64,000 nucleotides of DNA, taken from the sequence record PX969468.1; one strand, 5' to 3'. Below are positions 12,855-54,160 of the stretch, in pieces. A program made the position numbers and the translations under genes. Position 1 is the stretch's first letter. Every line of letters starts with the position of its first letter. The notes beneath the pieces are model-generated. The model made no database searches. It was not told the origin of the DNA and saw only the letters and a program-made list of their open reading frames with translations. Source of the stretch: a phage.

Positions 12855-13139
12855 CTACCAGGTTACTGTCAAGTAGGCAACCGTGTTATTTTTCTCTGGA
12901 GAGATGCCAACAACATCTACCTGCAGACCTCCTGCCCTCAAATCCCCAACAATATGCGGGAAGTAATCTGAGAGATGTGAGGGTAGATTTATCGAAAATC
13001 CGCATCCCAGAAAGCCTGCTAACGCTTTATTTTGTATCTCCCCTACAATCGCATCATAAATGGAGTTAAGCTCGTCAGGGAGCGTTACAGGACGTTTTAG
13101 CGCTAACTGGTGCAACTTGTCCTTAGCACTCATTTTCAT
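12855..13139 (-). CDS. hypothetical protein
   Basis: Start moved to MKMSAKDK..., which overlaps the upstream stop as ATGA. Confidence 0.45.
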   Translation of the reverse strand: MKMSAKDKLHQLALKRPVTLPDELNSIYDAIVGEIQNKALAGFLGCGFSINLPSHLSDYFPHIVGDLRAGGLQVDVVGISPEKNNTVAYLTVTW

Positions 13140-13669
13140 TTCAAATCTACCTCTGGTGGTGCCAACCACATAAATGGCGGCAAGTCTAGACGGTTTTTCT
13201 TGTCCCATACAAAATATGCATATGCCTGCCCATCCGTTCTACCATTGGATTGGAATGACGGGCGCTTAGATATTGTGATCACAGTGGTAGGTGCATTATC
13301 AAGCCACCATTCAAATCTGGCCTTGCTTTCCAGAAAATTAAGACGCAAAAGCATAATAACTACGTCGGCATCTTTCAACGCCTTGTCCACAAACTCACGG
13401 GCCAGGCTGTACGGCGGGTTGGTGATAATACAGTCAACATGGTTGTATTCTGTATTCAGATAGTCAACACCTTCTTGGATTTCTCCCCATGCAGATCCTA
13501 ACGGCATACGGGAGTAGAACACACCTGAGGCACTATTCCTGCAAGGCTCTAAGTAGGTCCAGTCTTCTGGGAACGGAATAAGGTCATACAGCCCTTCTGC
13601 ACACCACTCCGGTGTCACATACTCATCGTAGGCGTTACGTTGTTCATCAGGTTTTCTAGCACAAGTCAT
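13136..13669 (-). CDS. DNA N6-adenine (or N4-cytosine) methyltransferase, small phage Dam-like
   Basis: ITNPPY catalytic motif (motif IV of amino-methyltransferases). Confidence 0.55.
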   Translation of the reverse strand: MTCARKPDEQRNAYDEYVTPEWCAEGLYDLIPFPEDWTYLEPCRNSASGVFYSRMPLGSAWGEIQEGVDYLNTEYNHVDCIITNPPYSLAREFVDKALKDADVVIMLLRLNFLESKARFEWWLDNAPTTVITISKRPSFQSNGRTDGQAYAYFVWDKKNRLDLPPFMWLAPPEVDLK

Positions 13670-13720
13670 GCAAATCTCCAGATCATAAAAGCCCTCCGAA
13701 GAGGGCTTTAGAATTAATGT

Positions 13721-14770
13721 TTAAGCTTCTTCGACAATTCCTGCACCCAGGATTTTTTCATTGAGCTCTTTTGCTGTTTTAATAATATTGTCCACCAGAC
13801 GCTTGCGCGTCTTATCTTTCACCTTAACCTCTTCACCGCCGTTCAGAGTAGTCTTCAATTGAGACAGAATATCCTGAAGTTCAACGACAGAGAATCTCTG
13901 CAGATCTTCTGAAGTAATCTCACCCAGGGCAATTCTGACGGTCTCGCCACTTTCCATCTGCAGATTCAGGAACACAGTGTGAACATCACCTTTCGAACCA
14001 CCCGCTTTTGCAGATTCAACAGCATGAACTAACTCATCTAAAGATGTGCACTGGTGAATCTCCGGAAGACCTGCTTCACCTAACACGCCTTCTTCATCAC
14101 CTTTTGCCAGAAGCTTTTTCGGTTTTTGTCCGTTCTGGATGCGTTGTATGTTGCCTTCATCCAGAATAATAGCTCCAGTGCGTGCTGCCAGCTCTTCTCC
14201 GTCCAACCACACTTCGCCACCAGCTGTGATGGATGCGATCTCATCTTCTGTCAGCACCCCACCGTAGTATTTTTCGATCAGGCGTTCAAAACGTTTTTTC
14301 CAGTAGCTGACCTGAGTATTCATGTTCACACCGTTACCATAAGTGCCACCTTGATAGTAGTGGAACATAAACTCTGTGTCCGGAGCCACAGTACGTTCTT
14401 TACAACCAAGCCATAAGATTGTTCCAGCAGAGCAGCACATCCCTTCAGCATGTGCAACAACGCTTGCCTGAGACTCGCGGAATGCCTGCAGATAAGCCAT
14501 TGCAATGTGCACGCAACCTCCAGGGCTATTGATGATCACCCGAATGCTTTCTTCCGGCTGAGCCATACGGATCGTCTGCAGACGAGACATATGATCTTGT
14601 AAGTCTTCCAAATCGTCGATATAAAGAACGTGGTCAACAACAGGTGTTGGGTAGCTGTATGTTTCCATAATACCACCCGGCATACCAAACATTTTATTAC
14701 TCATAGGTTCGAAACCGTTCTGTTTTTCTTTCATGCCGTGTACCATGGTGCTGCGAGGTGTTAAATTCAT
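13721..14770 (-). CDS. ClpP/S49-fold serine protease with charged coiled-coil C-terminal extension (possible prohead protease-scaffold type)
   Basis: INSPGGCVHIAMAYLQAF and GMCCSAGTILWLGC resemble ClpP/SppA motifs; the C-terminal third is charged and helical. Confidence 0.55.
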   Translation of the reverse strand: MNLTPRSTMVHGMKEKQNGFEPMSNKMFGMPGGIMETYSYPTPVVDHVLYIDDLEDLQDHMSRLQTIRMAQPEESIRVIINSPGGCVHIAMAYLQAFRESQASVVAHAEGMCCSAGTILWLGCKERTVAPDTEFMFHYYQGGTYGNGVNMNTQVSYWKKRFERLIEKYYGGVLTEDEIASITAGGEVWLDGEELAARTGAIILDEGNIQRIQNGQKPKKLLAKGDEEGVLGEAGLPEIHQCTSLDELVHAVESAKAGGSKGDVHTVFLNLQMESGETVRIALGEITSEDLQRFSVVELQDILSQLKTTLNGGEEVKVKDKTRKRLVDNIIKTAKELNEKILGAGIVEEA

Positions 14771-14830
14771 GAGAAATCCTTAATATTGGAAGTTGAAAGC
14801 TATTTATTTAAACCTGATTCACATTTACCT

Positions 14831-15142
14831 TTATTTAGCAATCACTAGGGAATACTTACGATTGTTAGAAGCATCACAGCTCAATGATTGCCAGTCTACC
14901 ACATACCACGTATCATTGTCAACAATTACTTTATCGCCTGTTCTGTAGCAGGTACTGCTTTCAATAATCCGAGACTCGATAAAGAATCTGTGTCGGCGCT
15001 CACGTAGCAACGCTAAGTTGATTATATCACCACCACTGTCCTTGATCCACACATTCTTGGATCCTTTATTTGCCAAAATTGTCTCGCCGTTGTAGACAAA
15101 CAGGCAGTATATTTTATTCAGTCTCTCTTGTATTGTAGCCAT
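14831..15142 (-). CDS. hypothetical protein
   Basis: Track ORF; AGGAGA upstream; downstream of promoter 15173..15201. Confidence 0.5.
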   Translation of the reverse strand: MATIQERLNKIYCLFVYNGETILANKGSKNVWIKDSGGDIINLALLRERRHRFFIESRIIESSTCYRTGDKVIVDNDTWYVVDWQSLSCDASNNRKYSLVIAK

Positions 15143-15172
15143 ACTATCTCCTTCTACTTGTCTTGTCCGATA

Positions 15173-15201
15173 ATAATATCTAAAGCTTACCTGTTTGTCA
15201 A
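15173..15201 (-). promoter_or_regulatory. sigma70-like promoter (TTGACA-17-TATTAT)
   Basis: Consensus hexamers at 17-bp spacing on the minus strand upstream of CDS 14831..15142. Confidence 0.5.
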
Positions 15202-15245
15202 CAACTGTTTTAGATATTTAAGGGTGGAATAACCACCCTTCTATA

Positions 15246-16034
15246 TTACTCGGAAACAGGGGTCCAAATATGATTTGCACGATCCTCGATAAGATTGAGT
15301 GCAATCTGACGACCCAACCCGGAACGAACGACATCATCTGGACTATCAAAGCTGATCATTCCAACCTCAGGATCTGGATGGCGAGTAAAGAAATCCGTCA
15401 CCCATGCAAGGCCAGATTTACCAGGGATGTCACGTTGGCTATTATCACCCATAATTACAAGAGTGGCTTGATCAGAGATCCTTGTGATAATTGACAACAT
15501 TTCTTCAGGGTTAGTTTGCTGTGCCTCGTCAATCAGGACAAAGCATCGCTCATCGAAACTACGACCACGAATGCTTTCAACTTCACAAATCTCTATACGA
15601 CTGTTCTGACCGTCTCCCAGCATTGCGGCAAAAGCACCTTTGCCAACACGGCGACAAATCGTGTCCATCATGCTTCGAAGATAGGGCCACAGTTTCTGCA
15701 TTGCATTTCCAGGTTTAAATCCTGAAGTCTTTCCTGTCTGAACGTAAGGGCGTGCAACAATGATCTTATCAATCTCGTTCTTACGCAGAAGATCACCTGC
15801 ATATGCAGATGCCATGAACGTCTTACCGGATCCAAACACACCGTTTACAATGATAATCTTACGCGACCCTAGATAATCAAGATACTTTTGCTGCTTTTTA
15901 TTCATTGGTCGGAGAGCTGGAGCGGTGTGCTCTCGTTCGTCAGCAAATTTTTCAGCAGCCTTACGCAGGCGATCAGATTTGCGAGCCTCTCTAGCTTCAT
16001 CACGCATGCGTTTTGTTTCTTTAGCTCGACCCAT
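15246..16034 (-). CDS. phoH: PhoH-like ATPase
   Basis: Walker A GVFGSGKTFMA, Walker B VLIDEAQ, and overall PhoH-like sequence. Confidence 0.75.
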   Translation of the reverse strand: MGRAKETKRMRDEAREARKSDRLRKAAEKFADEREHTAPALRPMNKKQQKYLDYLGSRKIIIVNGVFGSGKTFMASAYAGDLLRKNEIDKIIVARPYVQTGKTSGFKPGNAMQKLWPYLRSMMDTICRRVGKGAFAAMLGDGQNSRIEICEVESIRGRSFDERCFVLIDEAQQTNPEEMLSIITRISDQATLVIMGDNSQRDIPGKSGLAWVTDFFTRHPDPEVGMISFDSPDDVVRSGLGRQIALNLIEDRANHIWTPVSE

Positions 16035-46798: not shown

Positions 46799-47082
46799 GA
46801 GTTACTGCACTGGTTGTTTTGTGCTTGTTATTGTGTGGGTGTGCAACCAGCGTTGAGAGAGAATACAAGATTGACCCTCCGGATGTAGGAAGGTTGATTG
46901 TTAAACCTCCCGAGGGTGCTATGAAACCACCTGCTAAAGCTATCCCTTTGAAGAAAGGTGCGCCAGATGCGGTGAATTCTGGCATTATGAGGGATAATAA
47001 CCTGTCTTGTAGTAATGATAGAGCTAAATTGATCATTTTGCAAGACTATATAAGAACACTGTTTCCAAAGGAGAGAGGTTAA
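46795..47082 (+). CDS. o-spanin (Rz1-like) outer-membrane lipoprotein
   Basis: Signal peptide with lipobox-like LLCGC, proline-rich mature region; start overlaps the i-spanin stop (separate architecture). Confidence 0.6.
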   Translation: MRVTALVVLCLLLCGCATSVEREYKIDPPDVGRLIVKPPEGAMKPPAKAIPLKKGAPDAVNSGIMRDNNLSCSNDRAKLIILQDYIRTLFPKERG

Positions 47083-47507
47083 TGTCTAAGATTTACGGAC
47101 CGTGTTCTGAAAAGCAGAAGATGATCCTAGAGAACGATGCAGATATTTTGGTGATCGGAGGTGCAGCTGGGTCTGGAAAGTCGTTCCTCTTGCAGCTAAT
47201 GCCACTTAAAATTATTGATGACCCACACAGCTCTGTGGTTATGTTCCGAAGAACAACTCCACAGTTGGAAGGTGAGGGTGGGCTATGGCCTAAAGCAGTA
47301 GCTATTTACAGTGATCTGCCTGAAAACATTAAACCAAAGTTCAGAGAGAAGGATCATAAGTTTATTTTTCCACGGTTTGATCCGAGCACTGGCAAGTGGG
47401 ACAGGAGCAAAAAAGGGGCCGTTGTAAAATACTGCCACATGGAGTATGTCCAAGATAAGCTTAACCATCAAGGCCTTGAGTACACCATGGTTTGCTTCGA
47501 TGAGGGT
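47082..47507 (+). CDS. terminase large subunit, exon 1 (ATPase N-terminal part)
   Basis: Walker A GGAAGSGKS, Walker B-like MVCFDEG; reading frame stops right after the Walker B region. Confidence 0.65.
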
Positions 47508-47557
47508 TAATTTGTAGCTCTCGTAAAACCTCCCTAATTGCGGGGAAATCTTTATTA

Positions 47558-47725: not shown

Positions 47726-48316
47726 ATGTGTAATACTAAAAAATGTATGGATTGCCAAAGAGTTCTACCTCTTGATGATTTCTTTTTATCATCTAAGAGC
47801 CAGGATGGATACTCAGGTACATGCAAGGAATGCTATATGTACTACAGGAAGAATGGATCTCGTAGAAACAAAAATATGGTTAAGAGAGATGATGCAGCAT
47901 CTTTTATTCAAGACTTACTGAAGAAAGGTGAGCTTTTTGAATGTAAATCTTGTCATGAAAGTATGCTTGCTGATAGTTTTTACACAAAACGCGACTATGG
48001 TAAAGTGTATCTAGTCACGAACAGGTGTAAGATGTGTGAAAAGTTTTATCAGATTGAGAAGAAATTTCACATAACAAAAGATGAATACTATCGTCTACTC
48101 TCAGATCAAGATCATAAGTGTGCAATCTGTAGAATATCTCTTGATGAGTATAAGACTCAAGGATATAGAGATTTCTTTTGTGTTGATCATGACCATAAAA
48201 CTGGTGCTGTAAGAGGGTTGCTTTGTGATAAATGCAACAGGGCTTTAGGTTTCTTCCAAGAGGATGAGGAAACCATTCTTAGAGCGGCAGAGTATTTACA
48301 CATTCATAAGATATAG
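47726..48316 (+). CDS. endonuclease VII-like / HNH-family zinc-finger homing endonuclease (intron-encoded)
   Basis: CVDHDHKTGAVRGLLCDKCNRALGF matches the EndoVII core; several upstream CxxC pairs. Confidence 0.6.
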   Translation: MCNTKKCMDCQRVLPLDDFFLSSKSQDGYSGTCKECYMYYRKNGSRRNKNMVKRDDAASFIQDLLKKGELFECKSCHESMLADSFYTKRDYGKVYLVTNRCKMCEKFYQIEKKFHITKDEYYRLLSDQDHKCAICRISLDEYKTQGYRDFFCVDHDHKTGAVRGLLCDKCNRALGFFQEDEETILRAAEYLHIHKI

Positions 48317-48390: not shown

Positions 48391-49512
48391 ACGCAATTCG
48401 AATGGGAGCAGATAGACTATTTGATGTCTCGTCTGCGATCTCAGTCAAAGTATCCATCAAGAATGGTTATCAGCTGTAACCCCGACTCAGAACACATGCT
48501 TGCCAAACTGGTTAGGTGGTGGTTGGACGATGAAGGGTATCCAGATCCGGAGAAATGCGGTAAGAAAAGATATTTTATCCGACGCGACGGGGAATTTATC
48601 TGGGGAGATTCTAAAGAAGAGTTGATAGAGAAATACACCACGGTTAACGGACTTGGCGTAGAGATCAAGCCAAGACCGTTGTCATTCTCGTTCATAGGCG
48701 CAACAATATTCGATAATCCTGTCTGTTTGAGAGACAACCCAGAATACCTTGCTTTCCTCGAAGGTCTACCAGAGCTGGAAAAAGCTCAGCTTCTCCATGG
48801 TAACTGGTTTGCAAAGCCTGAGGGTGCAAACTATTTTCAAAGATCTTTCCTTCGTGATGCCGATAGAGTACCTCTTGGGTCAGTATCTTGCAGGGCATGG
48901 GATAAGGCAGGAACCGAGAGAACTTCCGGTAATAAATTTCCTGACTTTACTGCCAGTATTAAGGTAAGTAAAGATAGCGACGGATTTTATTACCTGTCCG
49001 GTGATTATTGTCCTGAGAACGTGGATGACGGGAGGTATTCCACAGGTCTGGAAGGCAAGTTCTGTAAAAAGGCTGGTGAACGAGATGTGATCATCAGGAA
49101 ACAGGCGCAGTTCGATGGTGATGATTGCATAATCGTCTTCTCTGTGGACCCAGGGCAGGCAGGTAAGAGTGAGTTCTTAACCTCCTCCAGATCCTTGCTT
49201 GCCGAAGGGTTCAGGGTTGAAGAAGACCCAATGCCTTCCAACAAGTCTAAACTGACAAGGTTCTCACCTTTTGCCAATCTTGCCCAACAAGGAATGGTGA
49301 GGATTGTAAAATCCAGTTTCCATCCTGATACTCTGGAAGCATTTCTGACTGAACTTGAAAAATTCAACGGGGAAAGATCAACATTTAACAGAAAAGACGA
49401 CTGGGCCGACTGCGTAGCTTCTGCGATTAATTTCCTGGAGAAAGAGGAGGTAGCACTTCCTTGTGTGATTCCATCAATCTCATCACCTTCTATGTTCAAG
49501 CGTTTTATCTAA
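48391..49512 (+). CDS. terminase large subunit, exon 2 (ATPase motif C plus nuclease domain)
   Basis: In-frame region upstream of the track start reads TQFEWEQIDYLMSRLRS...; ISCNPD coupling motif; nuclease Asp contexts RAWDKAGT, IVFSVDPGQ, DDWADCVASA. Confidence 0.65.
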   Translation, partial: TQFEWEQIDYLMSRLRSQSKYPSRMVISCNPDSEHMLAKLVRWWLDDEGYPDPEKCGKKRYFIRRDGEFIWGDSKEELIEKYTTVNGLGVEIKPRPLSFSFIGATIFDNPVCLRDNPEYLAFLEGLPELEKAQLLHGNWFAKPEGANYFQRSFLRDADRVPLGSVSCRAWDKAGTERTSGNKFPDFTASIKVSKDSDGFYYLSGDYCPENVDDGRYSTGLEGKFCKKAGERDVIIRKQAQFDGDDCIIVFSVDPGQAGKSEFLTSSRSLLAEGFRVEEDPMPSNKSKLTRFSPFANLAQQGMVRIVKSSFHPDTLEAFLTELEKFNGERSTFNRKDDWADCVASAINFLEKEEVALPCVIPSISSPSMFKRFI

Positions 49513-49562
49513 GTGTTGCCAATCTTAATTAGATGTGGTACAATAAAGTAATTGGAGATACT

Positions 49563-49612: not shown

Positions 49613-51169
49613 GTGTCCAAAAAGAACCGCAGGAAACACAACGCCACAGCCAAAACTGTGAATAAATCTGGGAACGCAGGCGCACCAACTCATAATGTTC
49701 GTATGAGTGAGATCGGTTCTGGCGCACTTTCCCAAATTATGGCAGAATCGCAATCTATGATGGTTGAGGAATTGCGTTGGCCTCAGCTGATTGCCACAGT
49801 GGAGACTATGAAATGTGATTCCACAGTTGCTACTGCCTTAGATACAAAATATGTTTTCATCACGAAAGCATTCAATGATTTTAAGATCCTTTATAATGTT
49901 AAAAGTGAAGACTCTAAGAAAGCTGCCGAGCTTATAGAGTATTCTTTGCGTAATTTGGCAAACCAACAAACTCTTCGAGATATTGCAAGAAGCGCAGCTA
50001 CCTTTAACGAGTATGGTTTTTCACTGTTTGAGAAAGTATACCGCAGAGAGAAAGAAGGTAAATACGCCGGGATGCTTCTTATTGATAAAATTGCATTCCG
50101 ACCTCAGGCCAGTTTGTCCAGATCAGAGCCGTTTGTCTTTGACAAGAATAGTAGAACACTGACAGGTATTTATCAATCACCTAATGCATTTCTAAACACG
50201 CAGAATGCACGCTGGGCTGGTCCTCTTGCTGCAATGCCTTCAAAAGGCTTTAATGAGCCTGAAATTTTCATCCCTGCTAAAAAGCTTATGCTCATGACTC
50301 TGTCAGGAACAGAATCTAACCCTGCAGGTGTGTCACCAATGATAGGTTGCTACAGATCTTTCCGTGAGAAAGTCTTGATTGAAAACCTTGAGGTAGTTGG
50401 CTGCTCCAAAGACCTTGGTGGTGTGCTTGAGCTGAAAATTCCTTCCAATATTCTGAACAAGGCCAGCATTGACCCGAATTCAATGGAAGGGAGAATGGTT
50501 GCAGATCTTATGCTTGACGCAGCAAATGCCCATAGTGGGGAGCAAAGTTTCTTTATACTTCCGTCTGATAGAGATAAGTCTGGTAAAGAGCTTTACTCCA
50601 TGACCCTGAAGGGGGTTGATGGTATGGGCAAGCAGTATTCGACTAAAGATTTGATTGATGCCCGTAAGAAGGCGATTCTTGACCGTTTCGGTGCTGGCTT
50701 TATTAACCTCGGTAACGATAACGTTGGATCCTTCTCTCTGTCTGAGTCAAAACAGTCTATCCATGGTCATTTTGTTCAGCGTGATATAGATATTATCACT
50801 GAAGCCTTCAATAAGGATCTTATTCCACAGCTTCTGGCATTGAATGGTATCATCCTTGAAGATGATGATATGCCTAAACTGAAACCTGGTCTGATTGAAG
50901 AGGTGGACATGGAGAGCTTCTCCAAATTTGTCCAGAGGATCGGTGCTGTAGGTTACTTGCCAAAAACTCCTGCAGTAATTAATAAGATTCTTGAAGTAGG
51001 CGGGTTTGATGAAAGATTTGACGAGGACATGGATCAGGAAGAGCTGATGAAGCTCTTGGGCCAGGATATCAGTAGGGCTGGTGATGGAATGGCTGCAGGA
51101 TCCACTGGTAACGGCACTTCTAAGATGTCATCAACCAGAGATAATTCCATATCCAACATGGAAAATTAA
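49613..51169 (+). CDS. portal protein (putative)
   Basis: 518 aa immediately after the terminase; GTG start with GAGGGG RBS; position and size only. Confidence 0.5.
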   Translation: MSKKNRRKHNATAKTVNKSGNAGAPTHNVRMSEIGSGALSQIMAESQSMMVEELRWPQLIATVETMKCDSTVATALDTKYVFITKAFNDFKILYNVKSEDSKKAAELIEYSLRNLANQQTLRDIARSAATFNEYGFSLFEKVYRREKEGKYAGMLLIDKIAFRPQASLSRSEPFVFDKNSRTLTGIYQSPNAFLNTQNARWAGPLAAMPSKGFNEPEIFIPAKKLMLMTLSGTESNPAGVSPMIGCYRSFREKVLIENLEVVGCSKDLGGVLELKIPSNILNKASIDPNSMEGRMVADLMLDAANAHSGEQSFFILPSDRDKSGKELYSMTLKGVDGMGKQYSTKDLIDARKKAILDRFGAGFINLGNDNVGSFSLSESKQSIHGHFVQRDIDIITEAFNKDLIPQLLALNGIILEDDDMPKLKPGLIEEVDMESFSKFVQRIGAVGYLPKTPAVINKILEVGGFDERFDEDMDQEELMKLLGQDISRAGDGMAAGSTGNGTSKMSSTRDNSISNMEN

Positions 51170-51236
51170 AAATTATCAACACAGGGGGTTGCAAAACCTC
51201 CTTTGGCGTGATAAAATAATCCACATGGGGAATAAG

Positions 51237-51656
51237 ATGCCACAGGAAGAAATGATTTCCTACGAAATCATCTACGAGCCTGACACTAAAGATGCTCACG
51301 GTGAGTGGATGAGTAAAGACACCATCAAAAAGGCTAAAGATAACTGGGACGCAGCATACGCCGCAGGCCTAGTTTCTGAAAACCTTTTTCACTTGACCTC
51401 TACAGATGCTTTCACTATTGAAAAGACGTGGATTCAAGAAGAGTTTGATGTTGTAGTAATTGGCACTGAGCAGGTCATCAAGGCTGGCTCTTGGGTTGCT
51501 AAAGTTAAATACAATAATCCTGAACTATGGGAAGCTAAGAAGGCTGGCATTGTTGGTGGCCTAAGCATTCAGGCAACAGGTAATGTTGATGAAGAAACTG
51601 GTGAAATTACCAACGTAAACTTCGGGATCAGTGTTGTAGAAGAGGGCAATGAATAA
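51237..51656 (+). CDS. hypothetical head-module protein; start uncertain
   Basis: Track ORF between portal and scaffold. Confidence 0.4.
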   Translation: MPQEEMISYEIIYEPDTKDAHGEWMSKDTIKKAKDNWDAAYAAGLVSENLFHLTSTDAFTIEKTWIQEEFDVVVIGTEQVIKAGSWVAKVKYNNPELWEAKKAGIVGGLSIQATGNVDEETGEITNVNFGISVVEEGNE

Positions 51657-52633
51657 TGTCTGAAAAAACGATTACTATTAAAGAGAAGGGGATTGCCCTG
51701 TGCCATAAGGCGCAAGGCTATAGCGCTAACAACAGACCTGTATCTCTTTTGATGAAGAGTGATCTTAAGCCTGAGCAGTTAACAGACGACATTGTTAAGG
51801 CACTTCGCCAAGTTACTGTGGAGCTTAGTTTTGAAGAATACCTGCGTCGTTTCTTCGATATGTGGTATGATGATGCTAAAGCACTTGCACACATGCTTGG
51901 TTTTGAGATTGAAGAGGAGGCTTGGGCTAAAGAGCATCCTGATTGGGAATGGGCGCAAGCTGACGCAGAGTCTTGTATTGCATGGCTGGAAGAGCGTTGT
52001 GATAACGTGACCATTCATAAAGCTGCAAAAGAAGGCAAACAGCTTAGTGTGGTAGATCAATACAGCCTGTTAAAAACACAACAGATTTTTGAACAAGTAA
52101 CCGCTGATCTCTTCGATAAAGAAGGGAACCTGATCAAGGCGGTACAGGAACCTGCTGAGGTGGATAAAACTACCGAGGTGGATGATGTTGCAAAATCCGC
52201 AAATACCGAGGAGAATCCGGTGGACGTAACCAAAACTAAAGAGTATCTGGATCTGCTGAAGCAAGTAGAAGAGCTGAAAGCAACCCAGAGTAAAGCTGAA
52301 GAAATCATCAAGGCCCAGGTTGAAGTTGAAAAAGCTAAAATGCTGACTAAGGCTCAAGCTTTAAGCTTTGTTGGTGAAGAAGATCACGCAACCCTGGTTG
52401 ACTTCATGCTGGAAAAAGCTAACGAACCTATCGTAGCTATGCTGGAGAAAGCTCAAGCAAAAATTGAAGAGCTGGAAGCAGAGGTGCATAAAACTAAAGA
52501 AGAGTTTGCCACCACTGAACATGGTAATGATGGCGAACCTGTTGTGGATGATATTGCAAAATCCGCAGAAGAAATTCTTGCTGAAAACGTTGCAAAAGCA
52601 CTTGCTCGTGCACGTGCAGAATCTGCCAAATAA
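51656..52633 (+). CDS. scaffolding protein (putative)
   Basis: Long charged helical region (KAEEIIKAQVEVEKAKMLTKAQALS...) upstream of the capsid genes. Confidence 0.5.
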   Translation: MSEKTITIKEKGIALCHKAQGYSANNRPVSLLMKSDLKPEQLTDDIVKALRQVTVELSFEEYLRRFFDMWYDDAKALAHMLGFEIEEEAWAKEHPDWEWAQADAESCIAWLEERCDNVTIHKAAKEGKQLSVVDQYSLLKTQQIFEQVTADLFDKEGNLIKAVQEPAEVDKTTEVDDVAKSANTEENPVDVTKTKEYLDLLKQVEELKATQSKAEEIIKAQVEVEKAKMLTKAQALSFVGEEDHATLVDFMLEKANEPIVAMLEKAQAKIEELEAEVHKTKEEFATTEHGNDGEPVVDDIAKSAEEILAENVAKALARARAESAK

Positions 52634-52653: not shown

Positions 52654-53043
52654 ATGATTACCGCTCAATATTCTGATATCGTGCTCGGCAAAGTTGATTC
52701 TAGCGATGCTGGCTACAATTTTAAAGAGATGGAAATTACACTGACAGAGCACCATCATGCTGGTACTGTTGTAACAAAAACTGGCACTATCGCTAACGAT
52801 GATGGCTCAGACGTTTATGGTGTTCTCGTAGACCGAGCTCTGGTAAAAGATGCAGGAAAAGTTCATCTCGCTGAGCCTCTGCAAACAGGTCAGAAATATA
52901 AACTGGTTGTTGCAGTTCACGGTGTTACCTTTGCAAAAGATAAGCTGCTGGGGTCTAACGGTGAAGCAGCTAAGCAGGCTGTTCTTGAAAAGCTGGAAGC
53001 TCTGGGTAACAAAGTTCACGTCCAGACTCTTGGTGAAGAGTAA
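52654..53043 (+). CDS. head decoration or minor capsid protein (putative)
   Basis: 129 aa directly before the major capsid gene; codon use typical of highly expressed genes. Confidence 0.4.
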   Translation: MITAQYSDIVLGKVDSSDAGYNFKEMEITLTEHHHAGTVVTKTGTIANDDGSDVYGVLVDRALVKDAGKVHLAEPLQTGQKYKLVVAVHGVTFAKDKLLGSNGEAAKQAVLEKLEALGNKVHVQTLGEE

Positions 53044-53091: not shown

Positions 53092-54102
53092 ATGATTACT
53101 CGTAAAGATGAATTTGGCATTGTCGATTTAGGTGCTACTCTGGACCTTGTTCCGCGTCAATTTCGCCTGATTACCGGTATGGATCTGTTCGAAACTCGTC
53201 TCGGCACCTCAACAATTGCTCAGATTGAACGTGTTGATGAAGTTGTAACCGACATTCCGGCACGCCGTCGTGGTGGTGAGCGTAACTACGTGGGTAGTGA
53301 ACGTGCTCAGGTTAAAAACCTGAACATCCCGTTCTTCCCTCTGGACAAAGGCATCACCGCAGCAGATGTTCAGAACTTCCGTCGTTACTTCACCCCTGAT
53401 GCTCCGAAAACTGTTCAGGACGTAGTAACCCGCGTTGTTCGCCGTATCCGTGTTTCTCATGAAGCACTGCGTGAGAAAGCACTGTTCCAGGCTATTCTGG
53501 GTAAATCCTATGCGCCTGGTGACACAACCTGTCAGTATGACTACTACACTCTGTGGGGTGTGTCTCAGAAGTCTGTTGAGATTGACCCTGCAAAAGCAGA
53601 TCAGGATCCGATGGAGGTTCTGGAAGAAGCTCGTCTGCACATCGCGCTGCAAGCTGGCGATAACGCAGCTGGCTATCGTATTGTAGCCCTGTGCTCACCA
53701 GAGTTCTTCAGTGCTATTACCCATCACCCTCTGGTAGAACTGGCATACACCTATTACGGCTCTGCTCAGGAACCTCTGCGTCGCCGTCTGGGTGCTGGCG
53801 GTCAAGACAGCGTATACCGTGTGTTTGAGCATAAAGGTATCACCTTTATCGAAGATATCTCTGGCAATATTCCTAAGAAAGAAGCTCGCATTCTGCCGAT
53901 GGGTATTGATCAGATGTTCCAGCTGCACTTTGCTCCGGCAGACGATGTTAACGAAGCAAACACCCCAGCACAGGAACTGTACATGTGGTATAAACACTCT
54001 GCATACCTGCGTGAAGAGAAGATTGAATCTGAAACTTCTATGCTGGCAGTTAACACCCGTCCAGAGCTGGTTGTTAAAGTAACTCTGAAAAACGGTGACT
54101 AA
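53092..54102 (+). CDS. major capsid protein (putative)
   Basis: 336 aa after scaffold and decoration genes; strong codon bias; followed by the strongest terminator in the window. Confidence 0.55.
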   Translation: MITRKDEFGIVDLGATLDLVPRQFRLITGMDLFETRLGTSTIAQIERVDEVVTDIPARRRGGERNYVGSERAQVKNLNIPFFPLDKGITAADVQNFRRYFTPDAPKTVQDVVTRVVRRIRVSHEALREKALFQAILGKSYAPGDTTCQYDYYTLWGVSQKSVEIDPAKADQDPMEVLEEARLHIALQAGDNAAGYRIVALCSPEFFSAITHHPLVELAYTYYGSAQEPLRRRLGAGGQDSVYRVFEHKGITFIEDISGNIPKKEARILPMGIDQMFQLHFAPADDVNEANTPAQELYMWYKHSAYLREEKIESETSMLAVNTRPELVVKVTLKNGD

Positions 54103-54126: not shown

Positions 54127-54160
54127 GGGGAGGGGGTTCTCCCCTCCCCTTTTTATTTAT
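54127..54160 (+). terminator. rho-independent terminator (GGGGAGGGG-TTCT-CCCCTCCCC plus TTTTTATTT)
   Basis: 9-bp G/C stem and T-run immediately after the capsid gene. Confidence 0.8.

Follow-up and report, generated by a model that had tools for sequence, protein, structure and literature searches.

The gene at positions 13721..14770 (minus strand) of a 64,000-nt stretch of phage DNA (record PX969468.1; this whole stretch is referred to below as the window) encodes a ClpP-like serine peptidase of 349 residues. The window is a Vequintavirus (rV5-like) genome sequence. A preliminary description, made from the nucleotide sequence alone, had suggested that the protein might be a displaced prohead protease or else a protease with a different role; the first suggestion was not supported, and the second survived. 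The protein is predicted not to be the prohead maturation protease, but an S14-like phage peptidase that acts in the infected cell. In the reading that we consider probable, it is a non-virion, middle-phase, self-compartmentalising peptidase that works on cytoplasmic proteins and is genetically coupled to a neighboring gene for a PhoH-like ATPase.

The open reading frame (ORF) begins with an ATG at 14770, is preceded by an AAGGA ribosome-binding site, and is supported by tblastn, Pfam, and PHROG matches. A later start was considered, as the PHROG match begins at residue 24, and was rejected on account of the AAGGA before ATG 14770 and of an N-terminal extension common to close homologues. The gene is already known. 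Its product is 100% identical (tblastn) to JES2013 ORF114, recorded as “ATP-dependent protease” or “putative ClpP ATP-dependent protease subunit”, and its rV5 counterpart is gp122, for which the 2013 paper on rV5 used the name “ClpP (ATP-dependent) protease subunit”; since that year, the gene has borne a ClpP-like protease annotation in over 100 rV5-like genomes. On the function of phage ClpP-like or T5.042-type proteins, the literature offered only the phrase “function currently unknown” and generic statements on auxiliary genes. The gene does lie far from the head genes and on the opposite strand, as first described: 34.8 kb separate it from the portal gene, and it sits in a minus-strand block with the PhoH, nrdAB, nrdDG, thyX-type, ligase, and polymerase genes, whereas the structural genes are on the plus strand. 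The guanine-cytosine (GC) skew changes sign near 41-42 kb of the window.

The head operon and its protease

The head gene block had been thought to have no recognizable protease. This was contradicted by an ORF directly past the portal gene (51081..51656, plus strand), which encodes an XkdF-type (Peptidase_S78_2, PF14550) protein with a Pfam score of 64.6 bits, compared to a cut-off of 24, and which matches phrog_3017, “head maturation protease”. The head operon was found to run, on the plus strand, in the order late promoter, portal, XkdF-type protease, scaffold, decoration, capsid, and terminator. The portal gene (49613..51169; Pfam Portal_Mu, phrog_113) is homologous to rV5 gp64, which was found in virions. 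The scaffold gene (51656..52633; phrog_2970), equivalent to rV5 gp62, encodes an acidic protein of 325 residues, and is followed by the genes for the head decoration protein (52654..53043; phrog_2680), whose rV5 counterpart, gp61, reached 85% coverage by mass spectrometry (MS), and for a major capsid protein of the lambda gpE type (53092..54102; Pfam Phage_cap_E, E = 1.5e-39). By homology and published proteomics, the XkdF-type protein is likely the true prohead protease, with a proteolytic activity that is putative, as the Pfam name of Peptidase_S78_2 itself states.

In its longest form, which starts with the GTG at 51081, the XkdF-type product has 191 residues and its ORF overlaps the 3′ end of the portal gene by 89 nt. 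ATG codons at 51225 and 51237 lie just past a late-promoter-like TGATAAAATA (51209..51218) and give a product of 139-143 residues; a start at one of these two codons is probably the correct one. Among four distant homologues, D23, H25, H56, D75, and S114 (numbered from ATG 51225) are invariant. The ORF is a member of the XkdF-type head protease family (PBSX XkdF, ICP1 gp125, CB7_5, and W70_136), with which it shares the genomic slot and the invariant His and Ser, and this family is unrelated to the window ClpP-like protein in fold and sequence. In the window phage, the XkdF protease domain forms a separate short protein and the scaffold is encoded by the next gene.

The same order was found in ICP1, with portal gp127, gp126, capsid protease gp125, scaffold gp124, decoration gp123, and coat gp122. 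The scaffold role of gp124 was shown experimentally, a table in the rV5 paper gives an ICP1 protein as the homologue of the gp62 scaffold, and the maturation protease of this late-expressed cluster is considered to be gp125. In a Lactococcus siphovirus and a Curvibacter phage, too, a gene with an XkdF domain stands between those for the portal and the capsid. According to Iyer et al., XkdF peptidases take the place of the S77 prohead protease, the two being complementary in their phyletic distribution.

The XkdF-type gene bears the RefSeq name “DNA methyltransferase” in JES2013 (ORF61), HMD-6, ESCO13, anhysbys, and Lactococcus phage 56701 (L049:2860-3909), apparently a label taken over from phrog_1530, its best PHROG match. 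In curated records, the gene appears as “prohead protease” (BASEL phage AlexBoehm), as “peptidase”, or, in ICP1, as “capsid protease”. The methyltransferase label is a propagated mis-annotation that hides the head protease.

Transcription units and virion proteomes

Motif predictions place the ClpP-like gene and the head-operon protease in different regulatory classes. A sigma70-type promoter, TTGACA-17-TATTAT (rV5 “P121”; 15173..15201, minus strand), was located by a consensus scan with 11 of 12 matches and is identical to the element of the rV5 authors. Between it and the ClpP-like gene lies an ORF of 103 residues (14831..15142, minus strand; rV5 gp121 equivalent; phrog_5456) for which no Pfam match was found, and 14 nt past the ClpP-like stop codon there is an intrinsic terminator (rV5 “t122”; 13685..13706, minus strand) that matches the published rV5 terminator exactly. 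The two genes are predicted to form a separate transcription unit, with a host-type sigma70 promoter and a terminator of its own. The head operon, in turn, is preceded by a late-promoter motif (rV5 “P064”; 49534..49559, plus strand), an exact match to the published rV5 late promoter, and is closed by a terminator (rV5 “t060”; 54127..54150, plus strand) that differs from the published one by three mismatches. Some of the ICP1 genes within the range gp176-gp211 peak at 12 min, the capsid genes peak at 16 min, and the gp122-126 capsid cluster is late; the ICP1 ClpP-like protein, gp211, bounds the range gp176-gp211, and its timing rests on one statement about a subset of these genes.

In published virion proteomes, MS of rV5 virions detected 19 proteins, among which gp122 (ClpP-like) was absent, as was gp63 (XkdF), and gp62 (scaffold) was represented by two peptides. 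The virion lists of CB7 and W70, both of the Vequintavirinae, include the XkdF protease (CB7_5; W70_136, phrog_1530) and no Clp protein. The processing of the capsid N-terminus, which had been suggested as a check for prohead proteolysis, gave no sign of trimming: the rV5 capsid protein gp60 keeps its N-terminal tryptic peptide (residues 5-22) in virions, which excludes an N-terminal delta domain of that protein as the protease target.

These data bear directly on the proposal of a displaced prohead protease, in which the ClpP-like protein would use its C-terminal tail to enter the procapsid, in the manner of lambda gpC/Nu3 with its protease-scaffold arrangement, and would digest the scaffold, while the XkdF-like gene does other work. 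The head operon already has a protease-family gene in the canonical slot, with homologues in CB7 and W70 virions, whereas the ClpP-like gene lies in the replication block with a promoter of another class and its own terminator, and its product was not among the virion proteins of rV5, CB7, or W70. The T5-type homologue was seen in traces in virions of the T5-like phage BF23 (ORF45, at low intensity, beside the true prohead protease; PMC10644984), and this, together with the “putative” status of XkdF proteolysis, counts in favor of the proposal. Against it, homologues coexist with the validated T5-type prohead protease. The preliminary description had itself named the assignment of proteolysis to another head-module protein as a refutation, and homology and published proteomics make that assignment. 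Taken with the family and domain evidence given below, we regard a displaced prohead protease as very unlikely.

The scaffold homologue itself showed an uneven distribution, being barely seen in rV5 and abundant in W70 virions, where it accounts for 913 spectra and is called “capsid protein”. The last 40 residues of the scaffold homologue match a “tail fiber” PHROG, phrog_35194.

Family, fold, and active site of the ClpP-like protein

The ClpP-like protein matches phrog_5410 over its full length (E = 5e-155, 516.6 bits) and phrog_1827 more distantly (E = 3e-40, 138.9 bits); both are named “ATP-dependent protease” and placed in the category “other”. PHROG families named “head maturation protease” were matched at E values of 1e-22 to 1e-14, a result that favors a displaced prohead protease, as does the best NCBIfam match, Clp_rel_HeadMat (NF045542), which ranked ahead of the cellular ClpP models. 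The NCBIfam score, however, was 60.4 bits compared to a cut-off of 120, and the score with the cellular ClpP equivalog (TIGR00493) was 33.2 bits compared to 308.6. Judged by these scores, the protein is a member of neither curated family and belongs to a third, phage-specific clade.

Members of phrog_1827 include ICP1 gp211, the T5.042-type protein Slocum_060 of Serratia phage Slocum, and PAK_P4 gp168, and the Seunavirus protein belongs to phrog_5410. Their genes are found next to nrdAB and PhoH (ICP1), next to dnk (T5-type), or, in PAK_P4, among small early genes that lie upstream of those for dCMP deaminase and ligase, and none lies in a head module. Clade members coexist with a separate head-module peptidase in the window, ICP1, T5-like phages, Barbavirus, and Curvibacter phage P26059A. 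The two PHROGs share with the window protein the ClpP core, the invariant residues, the early or middle nucleotide-metabolism setting, and the separate head protease. Only the phrog_5410 branch, with Vequintavirus, Seunavirus, Certrevirus, and their relatives, has the C-terminal domain of about 100 residues; in phrog_1827 proteins the tail is missing, short, or unrelated.

An alignment of phrog_1827-type proteins led to 37 IMG/VR loci, and 45 loci and the window were scanned with hidden Markov models (HMMs) built for this study. The clade HMM recovered its members at E values of 1e-46 or below, and a second, weak group at 1e-15 to 1e-20. Five of the weak-scoring loci were inspected (L038, L039, L041, L042, and L044), and all showed the order TerL, portal, ClpP-like gene, and major head protein. 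These five are genuine ClpP-type head proteases, from which the window clade is set apart by its sequence as well as its context. The ClpP-related head-maturation proteases (NF045542; phrog_1684, 94, 2976, and 133) do have a related catalytic domain, and their layout of a protease followed by a C-terminal extension, which is also that of lambda gpC/Nu3, is found in the window protein; this resemblance to protease-scaffold fusions is a further point for a displaced prohead protease. In contrast to these enzymes, the window gene is not located between the portal and capsid genes, has a promoter of a different class, and encodes a product that is absent from the virions of relatives.

The assignment of a ClpP fold with a C-terminal extension was borne out at both the sequence and the model level. 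The Pfam family CLP_protease (PF00574; MEROPS clan SK) matched residues 59-168 with 47.7 bits (gathering score 20.2; E = 2e-12), and ClpP sequences of solved structure in the PDB matched at E values of about 1e-7. In these alignments, the catalytic residues coincide, the Ser within “CCSAG” and the His within “MFHYYQGG”. In an AlphaFold2 model built on 12 homologues, residues 45-215 (14126..14638, minus strand) form a ClpP-fold core that includes the long handle helix (147-169) and has a predicted local distance difference test (pLDDT) score of about 85-92. A Foldseek search of the PDB with this model returned ClpP chains for all of the top 50 hits, with target-normalized template-modeling (TM) scores of 0.64-0.74 over 157-187 columns at approximately 20% identity. 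The alternative term “S49-fold” in the preliminary description was not supported: there was no Peptidase_S49 (PF01343) match at E ≤ 1, the matches were of the S14/ClpP type, and in place of the Ser-Lys dyad of S49 peptidases (SppA, lambda gpC) a His occupies the ClpP general-base position.

The nucleophile position is occupied by Ser114 (codon 14429-14431) and the general-base position by His137 (14360-14362), and Glu186 (14213-14215) stands at the Asp171-equivalent position. Among nine divergent phage homologues with identities of about 25%, S114, H137, G84/G85, E177, and E193 are invariant, while the Asp171-equivalent residue is acidic (Glu or Asp) in seven of them and Gln in the other two; it is Asp in the ICP1 and T5-type proteins, and Gln in those of Seunavirus and Barbavirus. 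This pattern of conservation argues for an active peptidase. A protein of ClpP/crotonase fold that has lost proteolysis, and serves as an inactive structural or regulatory protein or as a different enzyme, could accommodate the Gln at the third triad position and a very weak match to enoyl-CoA hydratase (E = 0.003; 16.9 bits compared to 330). Such a protein is extremely improbable in our estimate, since the Ser nucleophile, the His general base, and the oxyanion-loop glycines are invariant among homologues this divergent, and all of the strong structural and sequence matches are to ClpP peptidases; the invariant Ser and His indicate that the protein is not a crotonase-like non-protease.

The C-terminal part was described initially as a scaffold-like, charged, helical terminus. 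The charge was confirmed (31% of tail residues), whereas the scaffold-like helical character was not. Residues 216-243 (14042..14125, minus strand) form a linker that is predicted to be disordered, with pLDDT values below 50 for residues 223-239, gapped and variable alignment columns, and a length that differs among relatives, and residues 244-342 (13745..14041, minus strand) form a family-specific domain composed of a helix, a beta-hairpin, and a helix-extended-helix element, that is, a hairpin and three helices. Modeled alone, this domain is compact, with core pLDDT values above 90, rather than an extended coiled coil; four of its residues are invariant across homologues, and it has no similarity to scaffolds, which is a further point against entry of the protein into procapsids as a protease-scaffold fusion. 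A Pfam scan of ten C-terminal domains gave no significant match, the HeH/LEM family appearing in one of the ten at E = 0.079. The likeness of this domain to Rho-N, SAP, or HeH motifs was not confirmed by that scan and is a lead only. A profile search with the domain detected no fusions to other types of protein, so that domain shuffling gives no hint to its function.

Comparison with cellular ClpP (MEROPS S14; E. coli structures 1TYF and 6WR2) revealed the same fold, a handle helix (TM of about 0.7 over some 170 residues), the same Ser and His positions, and an acidic residue at the Asp position, albeit with Glu in place of Asp. At about 20% identity, the window protein also carries approximately 40 additional N-terminal and 135 additional C-terminal residues. 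These features bear on the possibility that the protein is a substitute ClpP subunit, whose rings dock host ClpX or ClpA, or mix with host ClpP, and redirect the ATP-dependent proteolysis of the host. The database name “ATP-dependent protease subunit” implies such a role, the ClpP fold is complete with its handle helix, a conserved N-terminal segment (N25, Y40, P41, and D46) is found where ClpP has its axial loops, and Iyer et al. suggested that patchily distributed phage ClpP genes are directed at the host. Nevertheless, the low identity and the score far below the equivalog cut-off speak against an exchangeable subunit, and no phage ClpX or ClpA gene was seen in the neighborhood of the ClpP-like gene. 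The C-terminus of ClpP emerges on the apical face, near the docking pockets for the unfoldase. Seven C-terminal extensions of 150 residues could, therefore, hinder docking, and we consider a substitute subunit unlikely.

Linkage to PhoH

The PhoH-like P-loop ATPase gene of the window (15246..16034, minus strand; Pfam PhoH, E = 4e-47; phrog_170; PDB 3b85, E = 3e-27) lies 475 nt upstream of the ClpP-like gene, on the same strand and with one ORF between them. Dereplication at 60% identity yielded 15 strong (clade) lineages and eight head-type lineages, and phage P26059A was added as a 16th clade lineage. A PhoH-like gene was found upstream on the same strand in nine of the 15 strong lineages (ten of 16 with P26059A), namely at the loci L003, L006-L018, L020-L027, L035, and L052 and in the window. 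No case of a PhoH gene on the downstream side or in the reverse orientation was seen, and the eight head-type lineages had no PhoH nearby. The spacing is often tight. UNO-G1W1 and KIL1 show an 8-nt overlap between the two ORFs, and in Barba7A and several metagenomic contigs the ORFs abut. Curvibacter phage P26059A, which has an XkdF gene (ORF10) in its head module, carries PhoH (ORF117) 9 nt upstream of ClpP (ORF116). In the window, Seunavirus, Certrevirus, and ICP1, the pair is separated by one to three genes that are not conserved. In an all-against-all comparison of flanking ORFs, PhoH was the only widely common family besides the ClpP-like gene itself (10 of 16 representatives); the next family occurred in six lineages, mostly of one related group.

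The linkage is, thus, frequent and directional, but not obligatory. In the literature searched, we found no discussion of a PhoH-ClpP pairing: papers that list the two present each as an auxiliary gene in its own right, without comment on their adjacency, and neither the ClpP-like gene nor PhoH is mentioned in the PAK_P genomics paper. The linkage is a new observation and a modest lead. PhoH-domain proteins have been described as hexameric ring ATPases that partner degradative modules, the PIN domain in PhoH2 and YbeY in the case of YbeZ, which makes a functional coupling with a ClpP-like peptidase plausible and, as yet, unproven.

In the strongest form of such a coupling, a hexameric PhoH ring would dock on a ClpP-like ring, giving a dedicated two-component phage module for ATP-dependent degradation that would represent a new class of chambered protease or a machine that couples the degradation of RNA and protein. 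In that case, the C-terminal domain specific to the Vequintavirinae would tether the peptidase to PhoH or to substrates. The order of PhoH followed by ClpP on one strand recurs in at least seven different flanking contexts, with the 8-nt overlap or gaps of 3-9 nt in several lineages, PhoH is absent around the head-type ClpP genes, and PhoH domains are described as feeding substrate to their partner modules. PhoH-family proteins are known, however, as RNA helicase/ATPase partners of RNases and not as protein unfoldases. The pairing is also incomplete: the PAK_P lineage has no adjacent PhoH, Pseudomonas phage records number 184 with ClpP-like matches compared to 124 with PhoH, the T5-like genes are far apart, and unrelated genes intervene in the window and in ICP1. 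Finally, phage records with PhoH (3057) outnumber those with ClpP-like matches (945), so that most PhoH genes have no ClpP partner. A docked PhoH-ClpP machine is, on balance, unlikely, and so is the dedicated module as a whole.

One candidate for a docking element, an LGF-like motif of PhoH that might mimic the IGF loop of ClpX, was rejected; the motif reads SGF in the window PhoH. An LGF-like motif is conserved in cellular PhoH proteins that have no ClpP partner.

Returning to the reading of a non-virion peptidase coupled to PhoH, the protein may assemble into ClpP-like rings, and these would degrade host or phage proteins in the middle phase of infection, in the service of host takeover, recycling, or quality control. 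The peptidase might work in the same process as the neighboring PhoH-like ATPase. Candidates for feeding the protease are host ClpX or ClpA, the phage PhoH, or no partner at all, and the C-terminal domain on its flexible linker could be a targeting or partner-binding module specific to the Vequintavirinae.

Several points weigh against this reading. The best NCBIfam match indicates that the clade is evolutionarily close to the head proteases, and the BF23 trace makes a low-copy association of the clade with virions possible. Prohead proteases are often lost from mature virions, so that absence from proteomes is weak evidence. Expression timing in the window phage is deduced from promoter motifs and from ICP1, and the proteolytic activity, oligomeric state, and substrates of clade members are all inferred. 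Regarding the coupling to PhoH, PAK_P4, UNO-G1W1, L012, and L027 share broad synteny, from which just the PhoH slot is missing in PAK_P4; in T5-like phages, a distance of about 30 kb separates PhoH and the Clp gene; and part of the linkage may be inherited synteny.

Additional observations were made on the surroundings of the gene and on related records. ICP1, Seunavirus, and Certrevirus have other genes, without homology to the 103-residue ORF, in the corresponding slot. Directly 3′ of the ClpP-like gene lies a DNA (adenine) methyltransferase gene (13136..13669, minus strand), and a gene of this kind takes the same position in Seunavirus, Certrevirus, and the unrelated Barbavirus (L006:4954-5634, L008:4376-4888, and L010:4274-5086 among the compared loci). 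The 3-kb stretch around the ClpP-like gene is 98-99% identical to more than 100 rV5-like coliphage genomes. Over positions 13000..16000 of the window, 19 records named “Campylobacter phage” (within GenBank MG065647-MG065690; host Campylobacter jejuni) are also 98-99% identical to rV5-like phages of E. coli; their host label appears doubtful, and contamination or mislabeling may explain it. The large terminase gene is in two pieces (47082..47510 and 48421..49512, plus strand) separated by an ORF of the HNH zinc-finger type (47726..48316). The corresponding site in JES2013 contains an “endonuclease VII” gene, and for rV5 the published description includes introns in the gene for the terminase.

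As originally posed, the finding of a displaced protease matters little: the gene has long been annotated, and the “missing” head protease is present under a mis-annotation. What emerges is a clade of ClpP-like peptidases in virulent phages (T5-like, ICP1, PAK_P-like, and Vequintavirinae) that is clearly distinct from the head-maturation proteases. The phoH gene, which is widely used as a phage marker gene, is linked to the ClpP-like gene in most lineages of this clade, sometimes in overlapping frames. If true, a PhoH-ClpP module would give the enigmatic phoH “marker gene” of phages a concrete partner and function, and if PhoH and the ClpP-like protein act together, both functions could be addressed at once in tractable phages.

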